This document shows, in pieces, positions 785 to 54,470 of a stretch of DNA of 64,000 nucleotides (positions are counted from its first letter, which is position 1; each line of letters starts with the position of its first letter). The translations under genes and the position numbers were made by a program. The notes under the pieces were generated by a model. It was given only the letters and a program-made list of their open reading frames with translations, was not told the DNA's origin and made no database searches. Source of the DNA: an uncultured Thermoleophilia bacterium (GTDB lineage Bacteria; Actinomycetota; Thermoleophilia; Solirubrobacterales; 70-9); assembly GCA_963803425.1 (NCBI GenBank), contig CAWDMA010000001.1, positions 501,355 through 565,354 on the forward strand, given 5' to 3'.

Positions 785-856
785 TGGGCGCGGCTGGTTT
801 CGAACCAGCGACCTCTCGCGTGTGAAGCGAGCGCTCTCCCACTGAGCTACGCGCCC
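785..856 (-). tRNA. tRNA-Val (anticodon CAC)
   Basis: Reverse complement reads GGGCGCGTAGCTCAGTGGGAGAGCGCTCGCTTCACACGCGAGAGGTCGCTGGTTCGAAACCAGCCGCGCCCA. It has a 7-bp acceptor stem GGGCGCG/CGCGCCC, a D-arm, anticodon stem CTCGC/GCGAG with loop TTCACAC, and T-arm GCTGG-TTCGAAA-CCAGC. 72 nt; CCA not encoded. Confidence 0.93.
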
Positions 857-3705: not shown

Positions 3706-3983
3706 ATGGACCGTGCTAGGCGGGGAGGTAGCGGTGCCCTGCACCCGCAATCCGCTCTAGCGGGGCCGAATACCCGTCCGAGGGGCCGCGGCCTTCGGGG
3801 TCCGGTCCGCCGCAGGCGGCGTCGACGGCCAGGTCCCGCGCAATGTGGGCTCGCGAATCAGGTCAGGTCCGGAAGGAAGCAGCCTTAAGCGATCCCCCGC
3901 ATGTGCCGCGGACCAGCCTGGCCCGAGCCGGCCACGGCGGCAGCGCCCGGAGACCGCTCTCGACGGCGGGCCGCACGGTCCGT
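3706..3983 (+). ncRNA. ffs: signal recognition particle RNA, large (Alu-domain, Bacillus scRNA-like) type
   Basis: Domain IV hallmark GGTCAGGTCCGGAAGGAAGCAGCC at ~3862-3885. 5' Alu-domain block CCGTGCTAGGCGGGGAGGTAGCGGTGCCCTGCACCCGCAATCCGCTCTAGCGGGGCCGAATACCC closely matches the B. subtilis scRNA as I recall it. The closing helix pairs ATGGACCGTGC (3706-3716) with GCACGGTCCGT (3973-3983). It lies in the classic ffs-dnaX-ybaB-recR neighbourhood. Confidence 0.9.
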
Positions 3984-12815: not shown

Positions 12816-14107
12816 ATGGACCGGATCTCAGCTCAAGACCTCGTCGTGATGAAGTTCGGCGGCACCTCGGTCGCCGAGGCCGAGGACATCAAGCGCGCCG
12901 CGCGCCGGATCGTCGCCGCGCGCGAGCGCGGCAGCCGCGTCGTCGCCGTGCTCTCGGCGCGCGGCAAGACCACCGACGAGCTCGTCGCGATGGCCCGCGA
13001 GGTCTCGGATCGTCCCGCCCCGCGCGAGATGGACATGCTGCTCTCGACCGGGGAGCGGATCTCCTGCGCGCTGTGCGCGATGGCGATCAACGACCTCGGC
13101 CACGAGGCGATCTCGCTGACCGGCTCGCAGGCCGGGATCGTCACCGACTCCTCCCACACGAAGGCGCGGATCATCGACGTGCGGGCCGACCGGATCCGCG
13201 AGGCGCTCGCCGAGCGACCGGATCGTGCTGGTCGCCGGGTTCCAGGGGGTGTCGACCGACAGCCGCGACGTCACCACCCTCGGCCGCGGCGGCTCCGACA
13301 CGACCGCCGTCGCGCTCGCCGCGGCGCTCGGCGCCGACGTGTGCGAGATCTACACCGACGTTCGCGGCGTGTTCAGCGCCGACCCGCGGATCGTCCCGGA
13401 TGCGCGCAAGCTGGCGATGGTCTCCTTCGAGGAGATGCTCGAGATGGCCGCCTCGGGCGCCAAGGTGCTGCAGCTGCGCTCCGTCGAGTACGCGCGCAAC
13501 CACGGCGTCCGGATCCACTGCCGCTCGCTCCTTCGAGGACGCCCCCGGTACCCTCGTGCTCTCCGAGGACGAGACGATGGAGACGACCACTCGTAACTGC
13601 CGTCACCCACTCCGACGGAGGAGGCGCGAGTGACGATGACCGGCGTCCGCGACGAGCCCGGCGTCGCCGGGCGGATCTTCGGCGCGCTCGCCGACGCGAA
13701 CGTCAACGTCGACATGATCATCCAGAACGAGCCGGTCGCCGCCGACCATGGCGCGGACCTCTCGTTCACCGTCGCCGCGCGACGAGCTCGCGACCGCGGT
13801 CGAGGCGATCGAGCGGCTCGATGTCGCGACCGGGATCCAGACCGACGAGCAGATCGGCAAGGTCTCGATCGTCGGGGCCGGGATGCGCAGCCACCCGGGC
13901 GTCGCCGCGAAGGTGTTCGAGACGCTCGGCGACGCAGCGGATCAACATCGAGATGATCTCGACCTCGCCGATCAAGATCTCCTGCGTGGTCGCCGCCGAG
14001 CAAGTCCCGACCGCGGTGAAGGCCCTGCACGAGGCGTTCGAGCTCGGCGCCGACGCGGTCCGCCGCGAGCAGCCGACCGGGCTCGAGCACCGTCCCACGG
14101 TGTCGTC

Positions 14108-14111
<4 letters not shown>
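12816..14111 (+). pseudogene. lysC: aspartate kinase, reading frame broken six times (each net +1)
   Basis: VMKFGGTSV...LSTGERISCALCAMAI in frame 0. Continues as [11 protein letters not shown]...[14 protein letters not shown]...[21 protein letters not shown] (ORF 13225..), then [48 protein letters not shown] (ORF 13630..), [14 protein letters not shown]...[21 protein letters not shown] (ORF 13748..) and [17 protein letters not shown]. Frames run 0>1>2>0>1>2>0. Confidence 0.9.
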
Positions 14112-15163
<1,052 letters not shown>

Positions 15164-15191
15164 CGCCGATCCCGCCGGTCATCGCCGTCTG

Positions 15192-16392
15192 ATGGACCTC
15201 AGCTTCGGGGAGGCGCTGCTGGTCGTCGGGCTGCTGCTCGCGGTGGCCGCGGCGCTGTCGGGGGTGATGCGCGGGACCGTGCTGTCGATCTCGGTGCTCT
15301 CGGTCGCGGCCGGGATCGGATTTGCGGTCGCCGACGTGGTCTCGGTCGACACCGAGGACCCCGGCGTGCGTCGAGATCGATCGAGCTGGCGCTCGTCCTC
15401 ACCCTGTTCTCGGACGGGATGTTCGTCGAGCGCGAGCTGTTGGCGAGCACTGGGGCCCGGTCGGCGCGGGCGCTGGTGATCGCGATGCCGGTGACGATGG
15501 TGCTGCTCGCGCTCGGCGCCAAGGCTGCTGTTCGGCGAGCCTCACCTGGGCCGGAGGCGTTCCTGCTCGCCGCGGTGCTCGACGCCGACCGACCCGGTCG
15601 TCACCTCGGCCGTCGTCACCGCGCAGCGCGTCCCGGCACTGGTCCGCCACACGCTCAACCTCGAGTCGGGGCTTAACGACGGCCTGGCGCTGCCGTTCGT
15701 GCTGTTCTTCCTGGTCCTGTCCACGCCCGGCGGCGACGCCGGCACGGAGGCCGTCGAGCTGCTCGGCGAGGCGGCCGTCGGCGCCCTGATCGGGATCGTG
15801 CTCGGCCTGCTGGCGGGCGCATGCACAACCGGCTCCCCGGCGGCGGGATCACCGCGCGCTACGAGGGGATCTACGCGATCGGGTTCGGGTTGACGGCGTT
15901 CGGGCTCGCCGACGTCACCTTCGGCAACGGGCTGATCGCGGCGTTCGTGTGCGGGATCGTGCTTGGCGCCGCTCCGAGCACGAGGTGCCGGAGAGCTTCG
16001 TCGTCTTCAGCGAGAACGTCAGCGCGATCTTCCAGGTGCTGACGTTCTTCGTGTTCGGAGCGCTGATCGTCGCGACGGGCTTCGACGGGTCGATCCCGGC
16101 GCTGGCCGCGTTCATCGTGTTCGCGCTGCTCGTCGCCCGTCCGGTCGCGGTGATGGTGGCGCTGCTCGGCACGAAGCTCCCGCAGGCGCAGAAGCTGTTC
16201 ATCGCCTGGTTCGGGCCGAAGGGCGTCGCCTCGATGCTGTTCGCGCTGCTCGTCCTCGACAGCGGGGTCGCGCACGGATCGCTCGTCTTCGACGTCGCGG
16301 CGTTCATGATCCTCGCCTCGATCACTGCGCACGGGCTCACCGACACCATCGGGGCGCGGTGGATCGAGCGGCGGATGGAGAGCGCGAGCTAG
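15192..16392 (+). pseudogene. cation:proton antiporter (CPA1, Na+/H+ exchanger family), about eight frame changes
   Basis: Pieces sit in different frames: MDLSFGEALLVVGLLLAVAAALSG..., ELALVLTLFSDGMFVERELL, LLFGE, EAFLLAAVL, TDPVVTSAVVTAQRVPALVRHTLNLESGLNDGLALPFVLFFL, HNRLPGGGITARYEGIYAIGFGL, EHEVPESFVVFSENVSAIFQVL...WFGPKGVASMLFALLVL. Confidence 0.8.
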
Positions 16393-17276
16393 GCCGGAAC
16401 CGGCGTCAGCCGCTCCTCGACCCACTCGGTCGAGGCGATGTGCTTGCGCATCCCGAGGCGCTTCGGCTCGATCCCGAGCGCCAGGCCGACGAGCTGCGGG
16501 AGGTGGAGCACGGCAAGGCCGAGCTCGCGTCCGGTGATCTTCGCCGCCTCCGGCTGTTGCATGTCGAGGTTCAGGTGGCATAGCGGGCACGGGGTGACGA
16601 GGCAGTCCGCGCCGGCGTCGAGCGCGTCACCCACGTGGGTGCCGGCCTGGCGCAGCGAGGTCTCCCGGTTCATCGTCACGATCGGGAAGCCGCAGCACTT
16701 GCGGGCGCCGTCGTACTCGACGGCCTCGCCGCCGAGCGCCTCGATCACCTGCTCCAGGTAGAGGTCGCGATCGGGGTTCTCGTCGTACCCCAGCCGCGCC
16801 TTGGGGCGGAGCACGTAGCAGCCGTAGAACGGACCGACCCGCAGCCCTTCGAGGGGGCGTTGGACGTGCTTGCGGAGCTCGTCAAGCCCGAAGTCCTCGA
16901 CCAGCAGCCACAGGAAGTTCTTGTTCGTGATCCCTGCCTCGTAGTTGAGCCCCTCGGCGGCGAGCGCCTCGTTGATGTGGGCGCGGTAGGCGGAGTCGGC
17001 GTCGAGCCGCTGCTGACACTCGGACTGGGCTCCTTGGCAGGTGGAGCAGATGTTCATCATCGAGACGCCGGTCTGCTGGGCGAGCGCAAAGGTGCGGGCG
17101 TTCAGCGTGTCGACGAGCTCCTGGTTGTGCTCCGCAATCACCCCGGCACCGCAGCAGTTGGCGCGGTCCAGCTCGACCAGCTTGATCCCGAGCTCCTCGG
17201 CGACCAGCGCCATCGATCCGTGCAACTCCGGCGTGAACCCGCGCGAGACACAGCCCGGCCAATACGCAACTTTCAT
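16389..17276 (-). CDS. SdhE-like subunit with two CCG domains (HdrB-like), third gene of the sdh operon
   Basis: MKVAYWPGCVSRG...ANCCGAG and GCYVLRP...KCCGFP...TPCPLCHLN are two C-x-CCG-x-C-x2-C modules. This is the C-terminal part of the artefactual 747-aa ORF 16389..18632. Confidence 0.8.
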   Translation of the reverse strand: MKVAYWPGCVSRGFTPELHGSMALVAEELGIKLVELDRANCCGAGVIAEHNQELVDTLNARTFALAQQTGVSMMNICSTCQGAQSECQQRLDADSAYRAHINEALAAEGLNYEAGITNKNFLWLLVEDFGLDELRKHVQRPLEGLRVGPFYGCYVLRPKARLGYDENPDRDLYLEQVIEALGGEAVEYDGARKCCGFPIVTMNRETSLRQAGTHVGDALDAGADCLVTPCPLCHLNLDMQQPEAAKITGRELGLAVLHLPQLVGLALGIEPKRLGMRKHIASTEWVEERLTPVPA

Positions 17277-17279
17277 CTC

Positions 17280-17315
17280 CCGCCGCCTCCTCCGCTTCGC
17301 GTCCGGGGGCGGCGG
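17280..17315 (-). repeat. hairpin element copy A (core GGACGCGAAGCGGAG on the minus strand)
   Basis: Minus strand reads CCGCCGCC-CCCGGACGCGAAGCGGAGGA-GGCGGCGG with perfect 8-bp arms. It sits in the 56-nt spacer between sdhB and the sdhE-like gene, 3 nt before the latter's ATG. Confidence 0.85.
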
Positions 17316-17332
17316 GGCTTGCGCCACTCCCG

Positions 17333-18509
17333 TCATCGGTTTCCTACCTCGTCGGGCTCGGGCTCGACGGCCGCCTCGGGCACGTCCTGGTCGGGCTCCT
17401 CGCCCCGGATGTACAGGTTGAGCTCCTCGCGATGGCCCTCGGTGTGCTCGTAGATCCGCTTCACCCGCTTCTGGGAGTCGCCGGGGAGCTTGTGGTGGAC
17501 ACCGGGGATCAGCTTCGGCAGCGACCGCATCTTCCCGGTCCGGATCCCGCGGATCGCGGTCGGGATCGAGCCGATCAGGCCCTTGATCGCCCCCGGGGTC
17601 GGGACCAGCTTGCCCTTGATCCCGGGCGCGTAGGACTCCTGGAACAGCATCGACTCGTCGAGCGTCCCCTTCTTCTCGATGATCTTCGTGAACGCCTCCT
17701 CGTGCCGGCGTCCGTTGTTGGCGTCGTCGATCCCGTGGTCGTGGGTCGCCGCGCGGCGCAGTCGCATGATCTGGTCCATCGGCGCGACGCCCTTCGGGCA
17801 CGCGTCGATGCAGCTGAAGCAGTGGGTGCAGTCGTAGATCCCGTGCGGGTCCTGGGCGAGGTCGTGGAGGCGCTCGGTGTGCTGGCCGTCGCGCGGGTCG
17901 CCGACGAACCGGTACGCCTTCGCAAGCGCGGCGGGGCCGATGAAGTCTGGGTCGGCCTCCATCGAGAGGCAGGAGGAGACGCACGCGCCGCACTGGATGC
18001 ACGCCATCGACTGGGTGATGTCGATCATCGACTCGGGCGGGACGACGTGCTCGCGCTCGGGCTCCTCGCCCTCGGGAAGCAGCCACGGCGTGACGCGGCG
18101 GATCTTCGTCCAGTGGGTCGACTCCATGTCGGTGACGAGGTCCTTGATCACCGGCATGTTCCCCATCGGCTCGACCACAATTGGGCGCGCTGCGTCTCCG
18201 CTTCGCGTCCGGGCGCCGCGCGGTCACCGCCGGACTGCCGTTCCGTCGATTCGCGGCCTCGTGCGCCTCGCCGATCTGGGTCTTGCAGGCGAGCGTCGAC
18301 TGGCCGTTGATCTTCACCCCGCACGACCCGCAGATCGCGGCGCGGCACGAGCAGCGCACGACCAGCGAGCCGTCCTCGCGGTCGCGGGCCTGGAGCAGGC
18401 CGTCGAGCACGCTGAGCGTCGGGTCGAGCTCGACGTCGAACCGCTCCCAGTACGGCCCCTCGCCCGTCTCCGGCTGGTAGCGGCGCACCTTGAGCTCGAA
18501 CTTGGCCAT
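17333..18509 (-). pseudogene. sdhB: succinate dehydrogenase/fumarate reductase iron-sulfur subunit, frame interrupted at hairpin copy B
   Basis: N-terminal part MAKFELKVRRYQPETGEGPYWERF...CRAAICGSCGVKINGQSTLACKTQIGEAHEAA (frame of ORF 16389..18632). C-terminal part IVVEPMGNMPVIKDLVTDM...CIQCGACVSSC...CTHCFSCIDACPKG (ORF 17333..18178). The two frames are offset by +1 across 18179-18250. Confidence 0.85.
18186..18222 (-). repeat. hairpin element copy B, inside sdhB
   Basis: Minus strand reads CGCGCGGCG-CCCGGACGCGAAGCGGAGA-CGCAGCGCG. 37 nt, arms pair at 8 of 9 positions. Confidence 0.85.
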
Positions 18510-18526
18510 CGGATCGGAGACGGACC

Positions 18527-20231
18527 CTAGTAGGTCCGCTCGGCCGGCTCCCACTGGGTCATCGTCACCGGCGGTGTAGCTCGATCTCCGGCTCGGCGTC
18601 CGTTCGGCGACAGGACGATGTGCTTGTGCCACTCGTCGTCGTTTCGCTCCGGGAAGTCGGTGCGGAACTGCGCGCCGCGGCTCTCGGCCCGGTGCAGGGC
18701 CGCGACGCAGGTCGCCTCGGCGTTGTCGATAAGGAAGCCGAGCTCGATCGCGCCGATCACGTCCTGGTTGAAGACGGTGCCGCGGTCGTCGATGTACGCG
18801 GTCTGGGGCTGCTCCGCGAGCTCGCCGGACCGGTGTCCAGCGCGGTCTGGATCCCGTCAGCGTCGCGGAACACCGCCAGGTGGGCGTCCATGGTCTCGCC
18901 GAGCTCGCGCTTCAGGCTCCGAGACGCGCTCGCCCGAGCCCGCGCTCGCGGCCGATGATCGCGTCGATCCGGCGCTGCTCGTCGGCGAGCGCGGTGCGAG
19001 AGACGGGCCGGGACCGCCGCCGGATTCCTTCGCGCGGCTCGGCGGCGTGCTCGCCGGAGCGGCGCCCGAAGATCAGCGTGTCGAGCAGCGAGTTGGCGCC
19101 GAGCCGGTTGCCGCCGTGGACCGAGACGCACGCGCACTCGCCAGCGGCGTATAGCCCGGGGACGTTCGTGCGCGCCCTGGACGTCGGTCCTTGACCCCGC
19201 CCATCGTGTAGTGGTTGCCGGGCTTGATCCGGATCGGCTCGCGTGGTGATGTCGACGCCGGCGAAGTCCCGGCCGACGAGCACGATCTCGCGGAGCGCCT
19301 CGTGGATCCGCTTCCGCGGGACCACCGTGATGTCGAGCGCCACGGTCCCGTCCGGGAAGCCGCGACCCTCGTTGATCTCGGTCTGCTCGGCGCGCGAGAC
19401 CACGTCGCGGGAGGCGAGCTCCATCTTGTTCGGCGCGTACCGCTCCATGAACCGCTCGCCCTTCGCGTTCAGCAGGTGCGCGCCCTCGCCGCGGGCGCCC
19501 TCGGTGATCAGGAAGCCCTTCCCGGCCAGCGTGGTCGGGTGGTACTGGATCATCTCCATGTCCATCAGCTGCGCCCCGGCGCGGTAGGCGAGCGAGATCC
19601 CGTCGCCGGTGCAGATCAGCGCGTTGGTAGTCGGCTGGAACATCTGGCCGTTCCCGCCGGTGGCGAGGATCGCCGACTTCGCGGTGAACAGCTCCAGCGA
19701 GCCGTCGCCGACGTTGCGGGTGATCGCGCCGGCGCAGTCGCCGTCTTCGTCGATCACGAGGCCGGTCGTGAACCACTCCTCGTAGCGGTCGATCAGCTCC
19801 TCGTACTTCATCAGCTGCTCGTACAGCACGTGCATGATCGCCTGGCCGGTGATGTCGGCGACGTAGTAGGTGCGCGCCGCGGACGCTCCGCCGAAGGCCC
19901 GGGTTCCCAGCCGGCCCTCCTCGTTGCGGTGGAACGTCACCCCGAGGTGCTCCAGGTGGAGGATCTCCTGGGGCGCCTCGCGGCACATGATCTCGATCGC
20001 GTCCTGGTCACCGAGGTAGTCGGAGCCCTTCACCGTGTCGAACGCGTGCGACTCCCAGGAGTCCCCGGGGTTGAGCGCCGCGTTGATCCCGCCCTGGGCG
20101 GCGTTCGAGTGGGAGCGGACCGGGTGGACCTTGCTGATGATCCCCACGGACACGCCCTGCTCGGCCGCGGCGAGCGCCGCCCGCTGGCCGGCCAGGCCGG
20201 CTCCTATGACGAGTACGTCGTGCTCGGGCAA
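18527..20231 (-). pseudogene. sdhA: succinate dehydrogenase/fumarate reductase flavoprotein subunit, about nine frame changes in the C-terminal half
   Basis: Intact N-terminal 330 codons ([15 protein letters not shown]...[15 protein letters not shown]...). The rest is split over three frames: [17 protein letters not shown] / TDVQG / [29 protein letters not shown] / SGERVSE / [27 protein letters not shown] / ELAEQPQTAYIDDRGTVFNQDVIGAIELGF...AESRGAQFRTDFPERND / DAEPEIELHRR / PVTMTQWEPAERTY. Confidence 0.9.
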
Positions 20232-33674: not shown

Positions 33675-33777
33675 ACAACTCCCGCGGCGTGCTCCGCGCG
33701 CCGCCGTGTTGCGGGTCCCGTTGCAGCGTCGCAGTGGCCGGCGTGAGCAGCGTCCCGCGAGGGTTACGCTTGCCGCG

Positions 33778-37990: not shown

Positions 37991-38012
37991 ACCAGCACGC
38001 CCTGCCCGCAAC

Positions 38013-38050
38013 CCGCTCGCGCGCGGACGCGAAGCGGAGCACGCGAGCGG
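38013..38050 (+). repeat. hairpin element copy C
   Basis: CCGCTCGCG-CGCGGACGCGAAGCGGAGCA-CGCGAGCGG with perfect 9-bp arms. It ends 1 nt before ATG 38052. Confidence 0.85.
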
Positions 38051-38102
38051 AATGATGCCGGGTCGCTGCCAGGTCGTGCGGCAGCCGTACACTGCGCGGC
38101 AC

Positions 38103-38708: not shown

Positions 38709-38745
38709 CGCCCCATTCGCCGAGCAGCCCGTCCCGCCGGCCACC

Positions 38746-38781
38746 CCGCCAAAAGCGGACGCGAAGCGGAGCATTTGGCGG
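38746..38781 (+). repeat. hairpin element copy D
   Basis: CCGCCAAA-AGCGGACGCGAAGCGGAGCA-TTTGGCGG with perfect 8-bp arms (9 if C38745/G38782 are counted). Confidence 0.85.
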
Positions 38782-38825
38782 GCCTTGATGCGGGCCGCGC
38801 CGACCGGGTAAGATGACTTTGTAAC

Positions 38826-38864: not shown

Positions 38865-39137
38865 ATGGAAGCGCTTCTTCCCATCGCACAGGCATCCGCC
38901 GACACAGCAGGGCTCGACGCCGCGAAGGCGCTCGCGCTCGGACTCGGCACCGGGTTCGGGGCGATCGGCCCCGGGATCGGCGTCGGCTACATCTTCGGCA
39001 AGACGATCGAGTCGGTCACCCGCCAGCCGGAGATGCGCGGCGAGATCCAGAGCATCATGTGGCTCGGGTTCGCGCTCACCGAGGCGATCGTCTTCTACGC
39101 CCTGATGATGTCGCTGGTGGCGTTCTTCATCGCCTAG
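38865..39137 (+). CDS. atpE: F-type ATP synthase subunit c-like protein, not in an atp operon
   Basis: 90 aa. Helix 1 carries GAIGPGIGVGYIFG (GxGxGxG packing motif). Polar loop RQPE. Helix 2 WLGFALTEAIVFYALMMSL carries the conserved carboxylate. Confidence 0.85.
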   Translation: MEALLPIAQASADTAGLDAAKALALGLGTGFGAIGPGIGVGYIFGKTIESVTRQPEMRGEIQSIMWLGFALTEAIVFYALMMSLVAFFIA

Positions 39138-39139
39138 GT

Positions 39140-39174
39140 CCGCAAGATGCTCCGCTTTGCGTCCGGTTCGGCGG
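39140..39174 (-). repeat. hairpin element copy E (degenerate, inverted relative to C and D)
   Basis: Plus strand reads CCGCAAGA-TGCTCCGCTTTGCGTCCGG-TTCGGCGG. One core substitution and weak arms. It starts 3 nt after the atpE-like stop. Confidence 0.65.
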
Positions 39175-39392
39175 GGTCCCGGAAGGGACGACCGCGCCGC
39201 ACGTTAAGAACGGATTAACCGAAGTTCCGCACCGCGGCCGCCTTACGGTGGGCGCGGGATATAGGCTGCCAGGGTCAGCTGGAGGAGTTCCGGGATCCGT
39301 GGAACTGGAGGAGATCTGGGGTCCGCAAGAGAGGGCGTGGCCGCCTGGGGCGAGGGCCGGGTAGGACACAACGTGAGCACGAGGATGGGGCA

Positions 39393-53054: not shown

Positions 53055-54470
53055 TCACCGCGCCAGCTTCGGGCTGGTCCAGGGCCGCTCCAGGCGGGCG
53101 GCCAGATCGTCGGCCAGGCCCTCGATCGGGACGCGGACCTGTTCCAGCGAGTCGCGGTCGCGGAGCGTCACCGTGCCCGTGTCCTCGGTCTCGCCGTCCA
53201 CGGTGATCCCCCACGGCGTGCCGATCTCGTCCTGGCGGCGATAGCGCTTCCCGATCGAGCCGCCCTCGTCGTACTCGGCCGGGATCCGGCGGCGGAGGCT
53301 CTCGTGGATCTCCCGCGCCCGCTCCGGCATCCCCGCCTTGGAGACGAGCGGCAGCACGGCGACCTTCACCGGCGCCAGCTTCGGGTGCAGCCGCAGCACC
53401 GTCCGCTTCCGGCCCTCGACCTCCTCGACGTCGTAGGCGTCGACAATGAACGCGAGCAGGGAGCGGTCGACGCCGGCTGCGGGCTCGACGACGTGGGGGA
53501 CGTACGCCTCGCCGCGCTCCTGGTCGAAGTACTCGAGCTTCTCGCCCGACGCCTTCGCGTGCGCGGTCAGGTCGAAGTCGCCGCGGTTCGCGATCCCCTC
53601 CAGCTCCGACCACCCGATCGGGAACAGGTACTCGATGTCCGACGTCGCCGACGAGTAGTGGGACAGCTCGTCGGCTCCGTGCTCGCGGAGGCGGAGCTGG
53701 TCGGGACGGATACCGAGCTCCGTGTACCACCGCATCCGGTCGTCCATCCACCGCCGGTGCCACTCCTCCGCCTCGTCCGGCGGTGTGAAGAACTCCATCT
53801 CCATCTGCTCGAACTCGCGCGTCCGGAACACGAAGTTCCCCGGGGTGATCTCGTTCCGGAACGACTTCCCGATCTGGGCGATCCCGAACGGTGGCTTCTT
53901 GCGCGCGAACTGGAGCACGTTCTTGAAGTTGATGAAGATCCCCTGGGCGGTCTCGGGGCGGAGGTAGGCGACCGAGGCGTCGTCGGCGACCGGCCCGATG
54001 TGGGTCTCGAACATCAGGTTGAATCGCCGCGGCTCGCTGAGCTCGCCCCCACAATTCGGACATCTCAAGACACTGCCTGCGGCGTCCTCCGCTTCGCGTC
54101 CGGGCGCGGCAGGGTCCCGGGCGGACTCCTCACGCAGGTGGTCCTCCCGCCACCGCCGCTTGCACTCGCCGAGGCACTGGACGAGCGGGTCGGTGAACCC
54201 CTCGAGATGGCCGGACGCCTCCCACACCCGGGGGTGCTGGATGATCGCCGAGTCGATCGCGACGATGTCGTCCCGGTCCTGCAGCATCGCCCGCCACCAC
54301 TCCGCCTTCACGTTGTTCTTGAGCAGGACCCCGTAGTGGCCGTAGTCGTAGGTGTTCGCGAACCCGCCGTAGATCTCCGAGGCGCCGAAGATGAAGCCGC
54401 GCCGCTTGCACAGCGCGACTATCTCGTCGAGCGACGCCTCGCCCTGGGCGTCTGTACGGGCTGCCTCCAT
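53055..54470 (-). CDS. glyQS: glycine--tRNA ligase (dimeric GlyQS type) carrying hairpin copy F in frame
   Basis: RGFIFGASEIYGGFANTYDYGHYG..., FNLMFETHIGPV, YLRPETAQGIFINF, GIAQIGKSFRNEITP, class II motifs, C-terminal anticodon-binding domain. Confidence 0.95.
   Translation of the reverse strand: MEAARTDAQGEASLDEIVALCKRRGFIFGASEIYGGFANTYDYGHYGVLLKNNVKAEWWRAMLQDRDDIVAIDSAIIQHPRVWEASGHLEGFTDPLVQCLGECKRRWREDHLREESARDPAAPGREAEDAAGSVLRCPNCGGELSEPRRFNLMFETHIGPVADDASVAYLRPETAQGIFINFKNVLQFARKKPPFGIAQIGKSFRNEITPGNFVFRTREFEQMEMEFFTPPDEAEEWHRRWMDDRMRWYTELGIRPDQLRLREHGADELSHYSSATSDIEYLFPIGWSELEGIANRGDFDLTAHAKASGEKLEYFDQERGEAYVPHVVEPAAGVDRSLLAFIVDAYDVEEVEGRKRTVLRLHPKLAPVKVAVLPLVSKAGMPERAREIHESLRRRIPAEYDEGGSIGKRYRRQDEIGTPWGITVDGETEDTGTVTLRDRDSLEQVRVPIEGLADDLAARLERPWTSPKLAR
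54076..54113 (-). repeat. hairpin element copy F, inside glyQS
   Basis: Minus strand reads CCTGCCGCG-CCCGGACGCGAAGCGGAGGA-CGCCGCAGG with arms pairing at 8 of 9 positions. Translated as PAAPGREAEDAAG. Confidence 0.85.

Follow-up and report, generated by a model that had tools for sequence, protein, structure and literature searches.

The sdhB gene of an uncultured Thermoleophilia bacterium of the Solirubrobacterales (assembly GCA_963803425.1, contig CAWDMA010000001.1) raises the question of how an enzyme subunit could be read through a hairpin that breaks its frame. The gene lies on the minus strand of the window analysed here, a stretch of 64,000 nt whose coordinates are used throughout, and its two halves are separated by 37 nt (18222-18186, reading CGCGCGGCGCCCGGACGCGAAGCGGAGACGCAGCGCG on that strand). 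The first-pass annotation of the window had described these 37 nt as a hairpin whose removal restores one continuous SdhB, and re-reading of the minus strand matched its sequence exactly. It had offered three explanations: that an inserted element inactivated the gene, that an in-frame insert carries an extra base, or that the hairpin is skipped during expression. Comparison with relatives argues for a modified form of the second, in which the hairpin is a translated, in-frame insert and local base-calling or assembly errors account for the broken gene; we consider this the probable explanation. The meaning of the locus is then most likely ordinary, and it is the family of elements to which the hairpin belongs that is of interest.

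The N-terminal part of sdhB, which encodes the [2Fe-2S] domain (18226-18509, minus strand), is read in frame 1 from an ATG at 18509-18507 (...EAHEAANRRNGSPAVT). It enters the element as ...ANRRNGSPAVT followed by ARRPDAKRRRSAP and remains open for more than 500 codons past this entry, in an open reading frame (ORF) of 747 residues. The C-terminal part (PIVVEPMGNMPVIKDLV... to the stop codon, 17333-18184, minus strand) is in a different frame, which contains a TGA at 18226-18224 and then reads PRGARTRSGDAARPIVVEPMGNMPVIKDLV (ORF 17333-18178). Both this TGA and the distance of 70 nt (3n+1) between the conserved EAHEAA and IVVEPM blocks were seen as first described. Removal of the 37 nt gave a single SdhB of 379 residues, which NCBIfam places in the SdhB/FrdB families and which is 88-89% identical, over the full length, to 377-residue proteins of soil Solirubrobacterales (P0001 and P0002). 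The deletion therefore joins the two frames as claimed, but the loop that results is not of normal length, with 29 residues between LACKT and PVIKDL compared to 27 in insert-free homologues. Because this loop is two residues too long, the 37-nt cut is one of several that restore the frame and does not mark the boundary of the element. No second sdhB was found within the 64-kb window.

The element is better described as a unit of 42 nt, of which the sdhB copy (copy B, 18185-18225, minus strand) retains 41: GAC, the 5' arm CGCGCGGCG (18222-18214), CCC, the core, A, the 3' arm CGCAGCGCG (18194-18186) and C. Its core is an exact match to the 15-mer GGACGCGAAGCGGAG (18196-18210, minus strand), which contains a CGC-GAA-GCG mini-hairpin and has 14 invariant columns in 135 copies. 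This 15-mer has five exact occurrences in the window and a sixth that differs at a single position, at 17290, 18196, 38025, 38757, 39150 and 54087. The core of these copies is preceded by CC or GC and followed by (G/C)A, and their 9-nt flanks vary from copy to copy while remaining complementary within each copy. The apex CC-GGACGCGAAGCGGAG-GA is invariant, and the natural unit extends from GAC to CGC, with a G+C-rich, co-varying 9-bp stem, a C.A mismatch or A bulge, and a 2-bp step of CC/GG or GC/GC. Copies A (17274-17320, minus strand), C (38009-38055, plus strand) and D (38741-38787, plus strand) are perfect hairpins that fold into the 9-bp stem, a 1x1 loop, the 2-bp step, a GGA/GA internal loop and the apical CGC-GAA-GCG. 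Copy A, which covariance model R1 scores at 64.9 bits, lies between the sdhB stop codon and the ATG of a gene for a CCG-domain (SdhE/HdrB-like) protein; copies C and D, identified by folding and by model R1, are intergenic. Folding and model R1 also identified copy E (39134-39180, minus strand), a degenerate copy with the core GCAAAGC and a broken stem, located just past an ORF resembling the ATP synthase c subunit.

In copy B, eight of the nine stem pairs form (CGCGCGGCG with CGCAGCGCG), and the ninth position is a G.A mismatch. As a result of this mismatch copy B folds poorly by itself, at the level of shuffled sequence (z = 0.07 as DNA, 0.5 as RNA), whereas model R1, built without copy B, assigns it 36.4 bits (E = 4.7e-5). 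Its status as a hairpin thus stands through membership in the family and not through the fold of the single copy.

Copy B belongs to a previously undescribed 42-nt hairpin repeat of the Solirubrobacterales and other Thermoleophilia. An exact scan with SCGGACGCGAAGCGGAGSA over one genome per GTDB species found at least 119 stretches; 114 of the 119 listed come from Solirubrobacterales, Conexibacteraceae, Thermoleophilia or unclassified actinobacterial or bacterial metagenome-assembled genomes (MAGs), and the remaining five come from Streptomyces and Amycolatopsis, where those inspected had no stem. More than 130 copies were found in MAGs of Solirubrobacterales and Thermoleophilia. When 135 copies are aligned, the core does not vary and the proposed pairs are present in 83% of cells, compared to 68% after column shuffling and to only 28-52% when the stem register is slid; covariation was 0.356 versus 0.127 in shuffled alignments, and none of 500 shuffles reached the observed value. 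The family logo carries information from about -15 (G-A-C-C at -15 to -12) to about +33, with a modest enrichment of T from +28 to +33. Rfam 15 at gathering thresholds contained no match for the repeat, and with the E-value limit raised to 10 it returned nothing at copies C, D or E; a search of the accessible literature for the core sequence and for Solirubrobacterales repeats likewise found no match. The only Rfam matches in the window were a large bacterial signal recognition particle (SRP) RNA (3711-3978, plus strand) and one tRNA (785-856, minus strand).

Alignment of SdhB orthologues, which the first-pass annotation had proposed, revealed that intact relatives carry the same insert in frame or carry none. 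Most SdhB homologues have a 27-residue LACKT-PVIKDL loop (ANRRNGGSEPIVVEPM), and loop length among the homologues ranges from 27 to 41 residues. Twelve to 14 extra residues are present at the place of copy B in P0026, P0028, P0035, P0040, P0064, P0080, P0091, P0107 and P0112, and in altered form in P0051 (e.g., ANRRNKPASNRTAPGREAEEAVRPILVEPM). With L124, a further in-frame orthologue from the metagenome scan, the element is in frame in at least ten SdhB lineages. In these relatives the insert reads ...DR(T/A)APGREAE(E/D)A(V/A)RPI(L/V)VEPM and is located in the linker that follows the [2Fe-2S] domain. An AlphaFold2 model of one insert-bearing SdhB (P0080) had a mean pLDDT of 42, too poor to be of use.

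At the DNA level, L001, L002, L124, L125 and L126 are colinear with the window at the insert. The L001 copy (GAC/AAC CGC ACC GCC CCC GGA CGC GAA GCG GAG GAG GCG GTG CGA) is a unit of 42 nt whose stem (CGCACCGCC/GGCGGTGCG) pairs perfectly, and L124, L125 and L126 have perfect stems of other sequence, CGCGCCGCC/GGCGGCGCG and CGCGCCGCG/CGCGGCGCG. The stem variants among orthologues include ACC/GGT versus GCC/GGC versus GCCGCG/CGCGGC. Since these stems are perfect yet differ in sequence, compensatory double changes have occurred inside the coding region. All six orthologous copies are 36 or 42 nt long, a multiple of three, stop-free, and part of the predicted protein, whereas the window copy as assembled does not keep the frame. 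Variants such as GRVAE, GSEAE, GGEAE and GRDAE indicate that copies within genes evolve as protein. In L084 the element lies five codons further upstream (ANRR-PAADPAAPGREAEEAAG-NGSVAPI), and this copy is an independent insertion into the same SdhB loop. As further observations on this loop, P0051 starts out as DRTAPGR, like the hairpin insert, and then switches to a different reading (TGASPPRRPSGAS) while remaining in frame overall, and P0111 and P0115 have an unrelated 11-residue insert (ERTGGARSGGSAQ and ERAEGAPGEPGEQ, respectively).

These comparisons bear directly on whether a fresh insertion of a mobile element itself destroyed sdhB. Insert-bearing SdhB proteins are scattered over the SdhB tree, and this patchy presence and absence, together with the lack of an insert in the closest relatives of the window protein (P0001 and P0002 at 88-89% identity; L003 and L004), speaks for a recent arrival. 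However, the unit is 42 nt and stop-free, and the same junction is occupied in frame, with common flanks (S-D-R ... R-P-I), in at least ten lineages; the element at this junction is therefore old and tolerated. The frame defect also arises from 1-3 nt and not from the length of the element, and a further copy is in frame in another gene of the same window. We regard disruption by insertion as highly improbable, and the first of the three original explanations is not upheld, as only small indels break the frame.

That further copy (copy F, 54071-54117, minus strand; model R1) lies in the glyQS gene for glycine-tRNA ligase (GlyRS), where it is read as ...ARDPAAPGREAEDAAGS.... The GlyRS ORF (53055-54470, minus strand, 471 residues) is intact and matches NF003211 in one continuous stretch (E = 1.5e-193). 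Copy F is read within it as ...REESARDPAAPGREAEDAAGSVLRCPNCGG, and the insert amounts to 14 residues (DPAAPGREAEDAAG) in the loop before the CPxCGG motif. This loop has 36 residues in the closest homologue, which has no insert (P0121, 90% identical), and 50 in the window protein, a difference of 14 residues or 42 nt. The same GlyRS insert is found in P0124, P0125, P0126 and P0169, adding 14 residues in the window protein, P0124 and P0126, 15 in P0169 and 16 in P0125 (42-48 nt); it is decayed in P0129 and P0151 and nested in P0139. The presence of copy F in an intact GlyRS means that this genome tolerates the element as translated sequence. The same loop also holds other inserts: in P0139, P0140 and P0195 a second insert is apparently nested in the APGREAE element, and a separate insert family, HPPGADA...AEQPGG, adds 12-40 residues in P0123, P0132, P0165, P0176, P0182, P0184 and P0188.

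The defect in sdhB lies in small differences on both sides of the element. The window sdhB has a net excess of 3n+1 over its orthologues, and contigs of hairpin-free relatives from soil metagenomes differ from the window in length over this region by 37, 43, 43 and 46 nt, all 3n+1. Copy B and the six intact orthologous copies are colinear over GAC CGC GCG GCG CCC GGA CGC GAA GCG GAG. After GGAG, copy B is one nucleotide short, with GAG-AC in place of the GAG GAN of every orthologue, and its 3' side (GCA GCG CGC CCA ATT GTG GTC) resembles that of L126. The other five copies in the window all have a G or C after GGAG, a difference that had been noted before, and among the 138 other copies only two have A at this position. 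On the upstream side, the spacer between AAC and GAC (18242-18226) is 17 nt long (3n+2), compared to 12 or 6 nt in orthologues. In every intact orthologue the reading of the element (APGREAE) uses a third frame, different from both the N-terminal and the C-terminal frame of the window gene.

Two repairs may reconcile these differences. In one, two spurious nucleotides upstream and one lost G would be corrected to give NGSPA-DRAAPGREAEDAAR-PIVV; in the other, a single spurious nucleotide near 18224-18226 would be removed and the G-less core would be real, giving NGSPAV-PRGARTRSGDAAR-PIVV. Each yields a 30-residue loop, as in insert-bearing orthologues, and L025 and L118 have in-gene copies that are read in the RTRSG frame of the second repair. 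The original suggestion of an in-frame insert with an extra base comes closest to this evidence, although the unit proves to be 42 nt and not 36, and the orthologues use the third frame. We propose that the element, which sits in the SdhB linker as it does in relatives, would be translated as about 14 extra residues; small indels on either side of the core (the G lost after GGAG and the 3n+2 spacer upstream) break the frame. These indels would be base-calling or assembly errors belonging to patches that also affect sdhA, asd, and the aspartokinase and Na+/H+ exchanger genes.

Frame changes were mapped by tblastn with proteins of the syntenic contig L001, and indels by nucleotide alignment to L004, L003 and L001. 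Frame changes occur only in the genes for aspartokinase (12849-14108), asd (14310-15160) and the Na+/H+ exchanger (15192-16380), in sdhB, and in the 3' third of sdhA; the neighbouring genes for the CCG subunit, M50, M28, MMPL, PadR, RecR and YbaB are unbroken. The indels form two clusters. Cluster I (13214-15970) has about 21 single-base indels, nearly all insertions, across the aspartokinase, asd and Na+/H+ exchanger genes; aspartokinase and asd account for 12 single-base insertions at sites that are identical against both references, and the exchanger gene for seven. Cluster II (18570-19243) has about 11 sites at which the window carries one or two additional bases. All of them lie in the 3' part of sdhA, where 11 indel sites fall in the last 700 nt and none in the first 1000 nt. 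Together the clusters hold about 35 small indels, nearly all of them single-base insertions in the window with very few deletions; they come in bursts of about three per 30-70 nt and are not tied to homopolymers, and about 30 of the insertions recur at the same sites against L001, L003 and L004. Short patches that cross gene borders, strike essential genes and consist almost entirely of insertions look technical and not biological, and we infer that they are base-calling or assembly errors. Many related MAGs in the scan have MFD isolate names and large 'contig_' records and are presumably long-read assemblies.

Several observations weigh against attributing the sdhB defect to such errors. Copy B was originally placed at the edge of cluster II, but about 350 nt of clean sequence separate it from the last site of that cluster, and the missing G is a lost base, in contrast to clusters made up almost wholly of insertions. 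Owing to this distance and to the fact that one of its two defects is a deletion, the place of copy B in an error patch is deduced and not seen. Searches of sequencing runs turned up relatives at best, with no more than 14% of words, and no closely related assembly was found. The Solirubrobacterales MAG MFD09730.bin.1.164 (contig_8403; L115, reverse strand, about 1420) has a copy lacking the same G, in a GT4 glycosyltransferase gene that is likewise out of frame. When the G is put back, the halves of that glycosyltransferase join as ...RPARPGREAEDLAGVVSFYFPG, and an orthologue in L025 is in frame with the core read as RTRSGG. This parallel may mean that the position is error-prone in assemblies or that it is a real deletion hot spot. 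Finally, translation of the insert is most likely, but it is deduced from a conserved, stop-free length of a multiple of three in predicted proteins and not from peptides. A metagenome scan with the 5' arm and core of copy B itself gave no matches.

If the assembled sequence is instead correct, sdhB, along with sdhA, would be a recent pseudogene in which real indels, perhaps favoured by the hairpin, shifted the frame of a formerly in-frame insert. The frame is indeed broken as assembled, no other sdhB is present in the window, and the loss of the same G in the out-of-frame gene of L115 may point to a mutational hot spot. The 3' part of sdhA also has somewhat more non-synonymous differences (0.08/0.098/0.187 versus 0.046/0.019/0.194). 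However, no relaxation is seen in the CCG gene or over the C-terminal two thirds of sdhB: divergence at codon positions 1/2/3 is 0.059/0.037/0.168 in the clean parts of sdhB and 0.029/0.011/0.225 in the CCG gene, the pattern of purifying selection. The indels are confined to two short patches that cross gene borders and strike the essential genes asd, aspartokinase and sdhA, in sequence that is otherwise indel-free. They comprise about 30 insertions against few deletions and are not tied to homopolymers; an insertion excess of that kind is not known as a natural bacterial mutation spectrum. Loss of the G also makes the hairpin less perfect, whereas mutagenesis at quasi-palindromes usually makes it more so. 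Recent pseudogene formation is accordingly a minor possibility, which we judge unlikely.

Alternatively, a normal SdhB could be made from the assembled sequence if the hairpin were skipped or recoded during expression, with the 3n+1 gap being bypassed or two -1 frameshifts taking place. Bypass by hairpin-derived elements is known from the gap in T4 gene 60 and from the 'byps' of Magnusiomyces mitochondria, and copy B resembles these as a short hairpin-forming insert in an essential gene that would disrupt the frame under normal reading. The byps descend from mobile hairpins rich in G+C. A bypass event requires that take-off and landing codons match, and in gene 60 also a stop codon after the take-off site. 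At sdhB the 3n+1 length, a stable hairpin in the gap and the TGA of the landing frame just upstream fit such an event, as does the occurrence of a G-less copy in an out-of-frame gene in two assemblies. Unlike the known bypass elements, however, the window sdhB has none of these signals. No identical take-off and landing codons surround the 37 nt (ACC precedes the gap, but the landing site has no ACC codon), no stop codon follows any candidate take-off site in the long-open N-terminal frame, and no X XXY YYZ slippery heptamer is present at ...GCG GTG ACC... or ...GCG GAG ACG.... The other in-gene copies of the family, orthologue inserts included, are a multiple of three in length, stop-free and predicted to be translated. 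Since those copies evolve as protein and bypass signals are missing, bypass is very unlikely and receives almost no weight here; the third of the original explanations thus falls away. This assembly alone is not sufficient ground for calling sdhB a pseudogene, nor for calling the hairpin a disruptive insertion or a bypass signal. The two patches of putative indel errors break five housekeeping genes of the window.

Across the family, intergenic copies are mostly 0-40 nt from a stop codon, in either orientation, with no preference relative to the flanking genes (21 co-oriented and 24 anti-oriented). Copies were counted as in-gene only by a strict two-flank test, in which both 150-nt flanks had to be open, with a strong signal of G+C at third codon positions, and in the same frame. 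Sixteen of 133 copies (about 1 in 8) passed this test, in several genes, frames and orientations; they read APGREAE(E/D)A or PRTRSGG in sense and SSASRPG or LRFASGG in antisense. About ten more copies form the C-terminal tail of an ORF that stops at or next to the start of the following gene. In any one of the six frames, approximately 90% of copies contain no stop codon. As the unit is a multiple of three in length and stop-free in nearly all frames, it survives inside genes, in tolerant loops. Coding-looking flanks in different frames were seen for 20 copies, of which 19 were inspected: about ten are upstream ORFs that read through the element, and a few more are either closely spaced genes of another kind or copies that were read on the wrong strand and prove to be in frame on the opposite one. 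Only copy B and the L115 copy, and possibly that of L036, looked genuinely out of frame.

We tentatively propose, holding it as possible and somewhat short of probable, that a 42-nt hairpin element, undescribed so far and specific to the order, has spread to the ends of genes and has also settled in frame in loops of essential proteins, among them SdhB, GlyRS and the glycosyltransferase. Its apex contains the GCGAAGC mini-hairpin, and its stem would be kept paired, even in coding sequence, by compensatory double substitutions. Such preservation would imply a function at the nucleic-acid level or a copying or repair mechanism in which one arm serves as template for the other. In a wilder version of this proposal, the G-less copies of the window and L115 would be expressed by recoding.

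In behaviour the element resembles the Rickettsia palindromic elements (RPEs), dispersed palindromes that are found between genes as well as in frame in unrelated housekeeping genes, that add a tolerated extra peptide and that are patchy among orthologues; in the window, copies A, C and D are intergenic, whereas copy B lies in sdhB and copy F in glyQS. RPEs are about 100-150 bp long and form ten families in Rickettsia (PMC10969869). They are conserved in sequence, whereas the Solirubrobacterales element, from the Actinomycetota, is 42 nt long, conserves only a 20-nt apex and has a compensatory stem; both size and host phylum differ. The repetitive extragenic palindromes (REPs) and bacterial interspersed mosaic elements (BIMEs) of Enterobacteria and Pseudomonas are similar in being imperfect, G+C-rich palindromes of 20-40 nt that lie close to 3' gene ends in both orientations, at times as tandem copies, and lack target-site duplications. 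REPs are extragenic by definition, conserve their stem sequence within a family, carry a 5' GT(A/G)G motif and are associated with RAYT transposases. In the Solirubrobacterales family, by contrast, about 1 in 8 copies are in genes, the stems vary, and no GTAG appears in the family logo. The apex CGCGAAGCG contains the GCGAAGC heptamer of the d(GCGAAGC) mini-hairpin. This heptamer is an extraordinarily stable DNA mini-hairpin (Hirao and co-workers) that is found at phage G4-type origins and other single-strand initiation signals (PMC13037366). It is, however, a structural motif and not a repeat family, and a role of the element in priming or as an origin has no support here. Small hairpin repeats that invade repeatedly and keep the hairpin while the sequence drifts are also found in mitochondria, as repetitive hairpin-forming elements (RHEs) and GC clusters, of which sponge RHEs are an example (PMC2800124). 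RHEs differ in being organellar, A+T-rich and mostly intergenic, and no relationship is implied.

The family thus represents a compact hairpin repeat in abundant, poorly studied soil Actinomycetota. It behaves as the protein-coding palindromes of Rickettsia do, but has the size of a REP, one third of theirs. Through it, loops of essential enzymes are lengthened by about 14 residues; it has been gained and lost repeatedly, and within genes its stem is preserved as the sequence changes. It could serve for examining how proteins accommodate selfish or structural DNA, what lets hairpins persist within coding sequence, and how they influence the accuracy of assembly.

Candidate identities other than a hairpin repeat were tried and rejected. 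The 139 copies lack a target-site duplication of fixed length, which does not fit a miniature inverted-repeat transposable element (MITE), and no 4-mer is common to both flanks at a fixed offset in more than five of them. No terminator-like site was detected at copies C, D or E, which does not fit an intrinsic terminator. A phage origin was suggested by a single viral-contig match, which is attributed to chance because it has no stem.

The junction between sdhB and the CCG gene (17274-17352 in the window) allows sites with and without copy A to be compared. The overlap of the two genes is split by copy A in the window and likewise in L001 and L022; L002, L003, L004 and L125 have no copy there, and their two genes overlap by ATGA. 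Where copy A is present, GATGA (TGATG in L001) is found on both sides of the inserted segment, and both stop and start codon are kept; this repeat around copy A results from insertion that splits the stop/start overlap. Tandem arrays of two or three copies with a period of 39-138 nt were observed in L057 (1005-1187), L055 (6890-6976), L033 (4911-5045), L050 (2130-2286) and L091 (5709-5763). The window also contains a weak covariance-model match at 33676-33711 (minus strand; 25 bits, E = 0.012), a truncated-looking copy (GGGACCCGC...GCGGAGCACGCCGCGGGAGTTG) in which the flanks and the 3' arm are kept and GGACGCGAA is missing. The sdh operon itself (16389-20231, minus strand) encodes SdhA, a long SdhB that extends about 130 residues past the usual C-terminus, and the CCG-domain HdrB/SdhE-like subunit, with no gene for a haem-b membrane anchor among them, the arrangement seen in non-classical enzymes of 'type E'.

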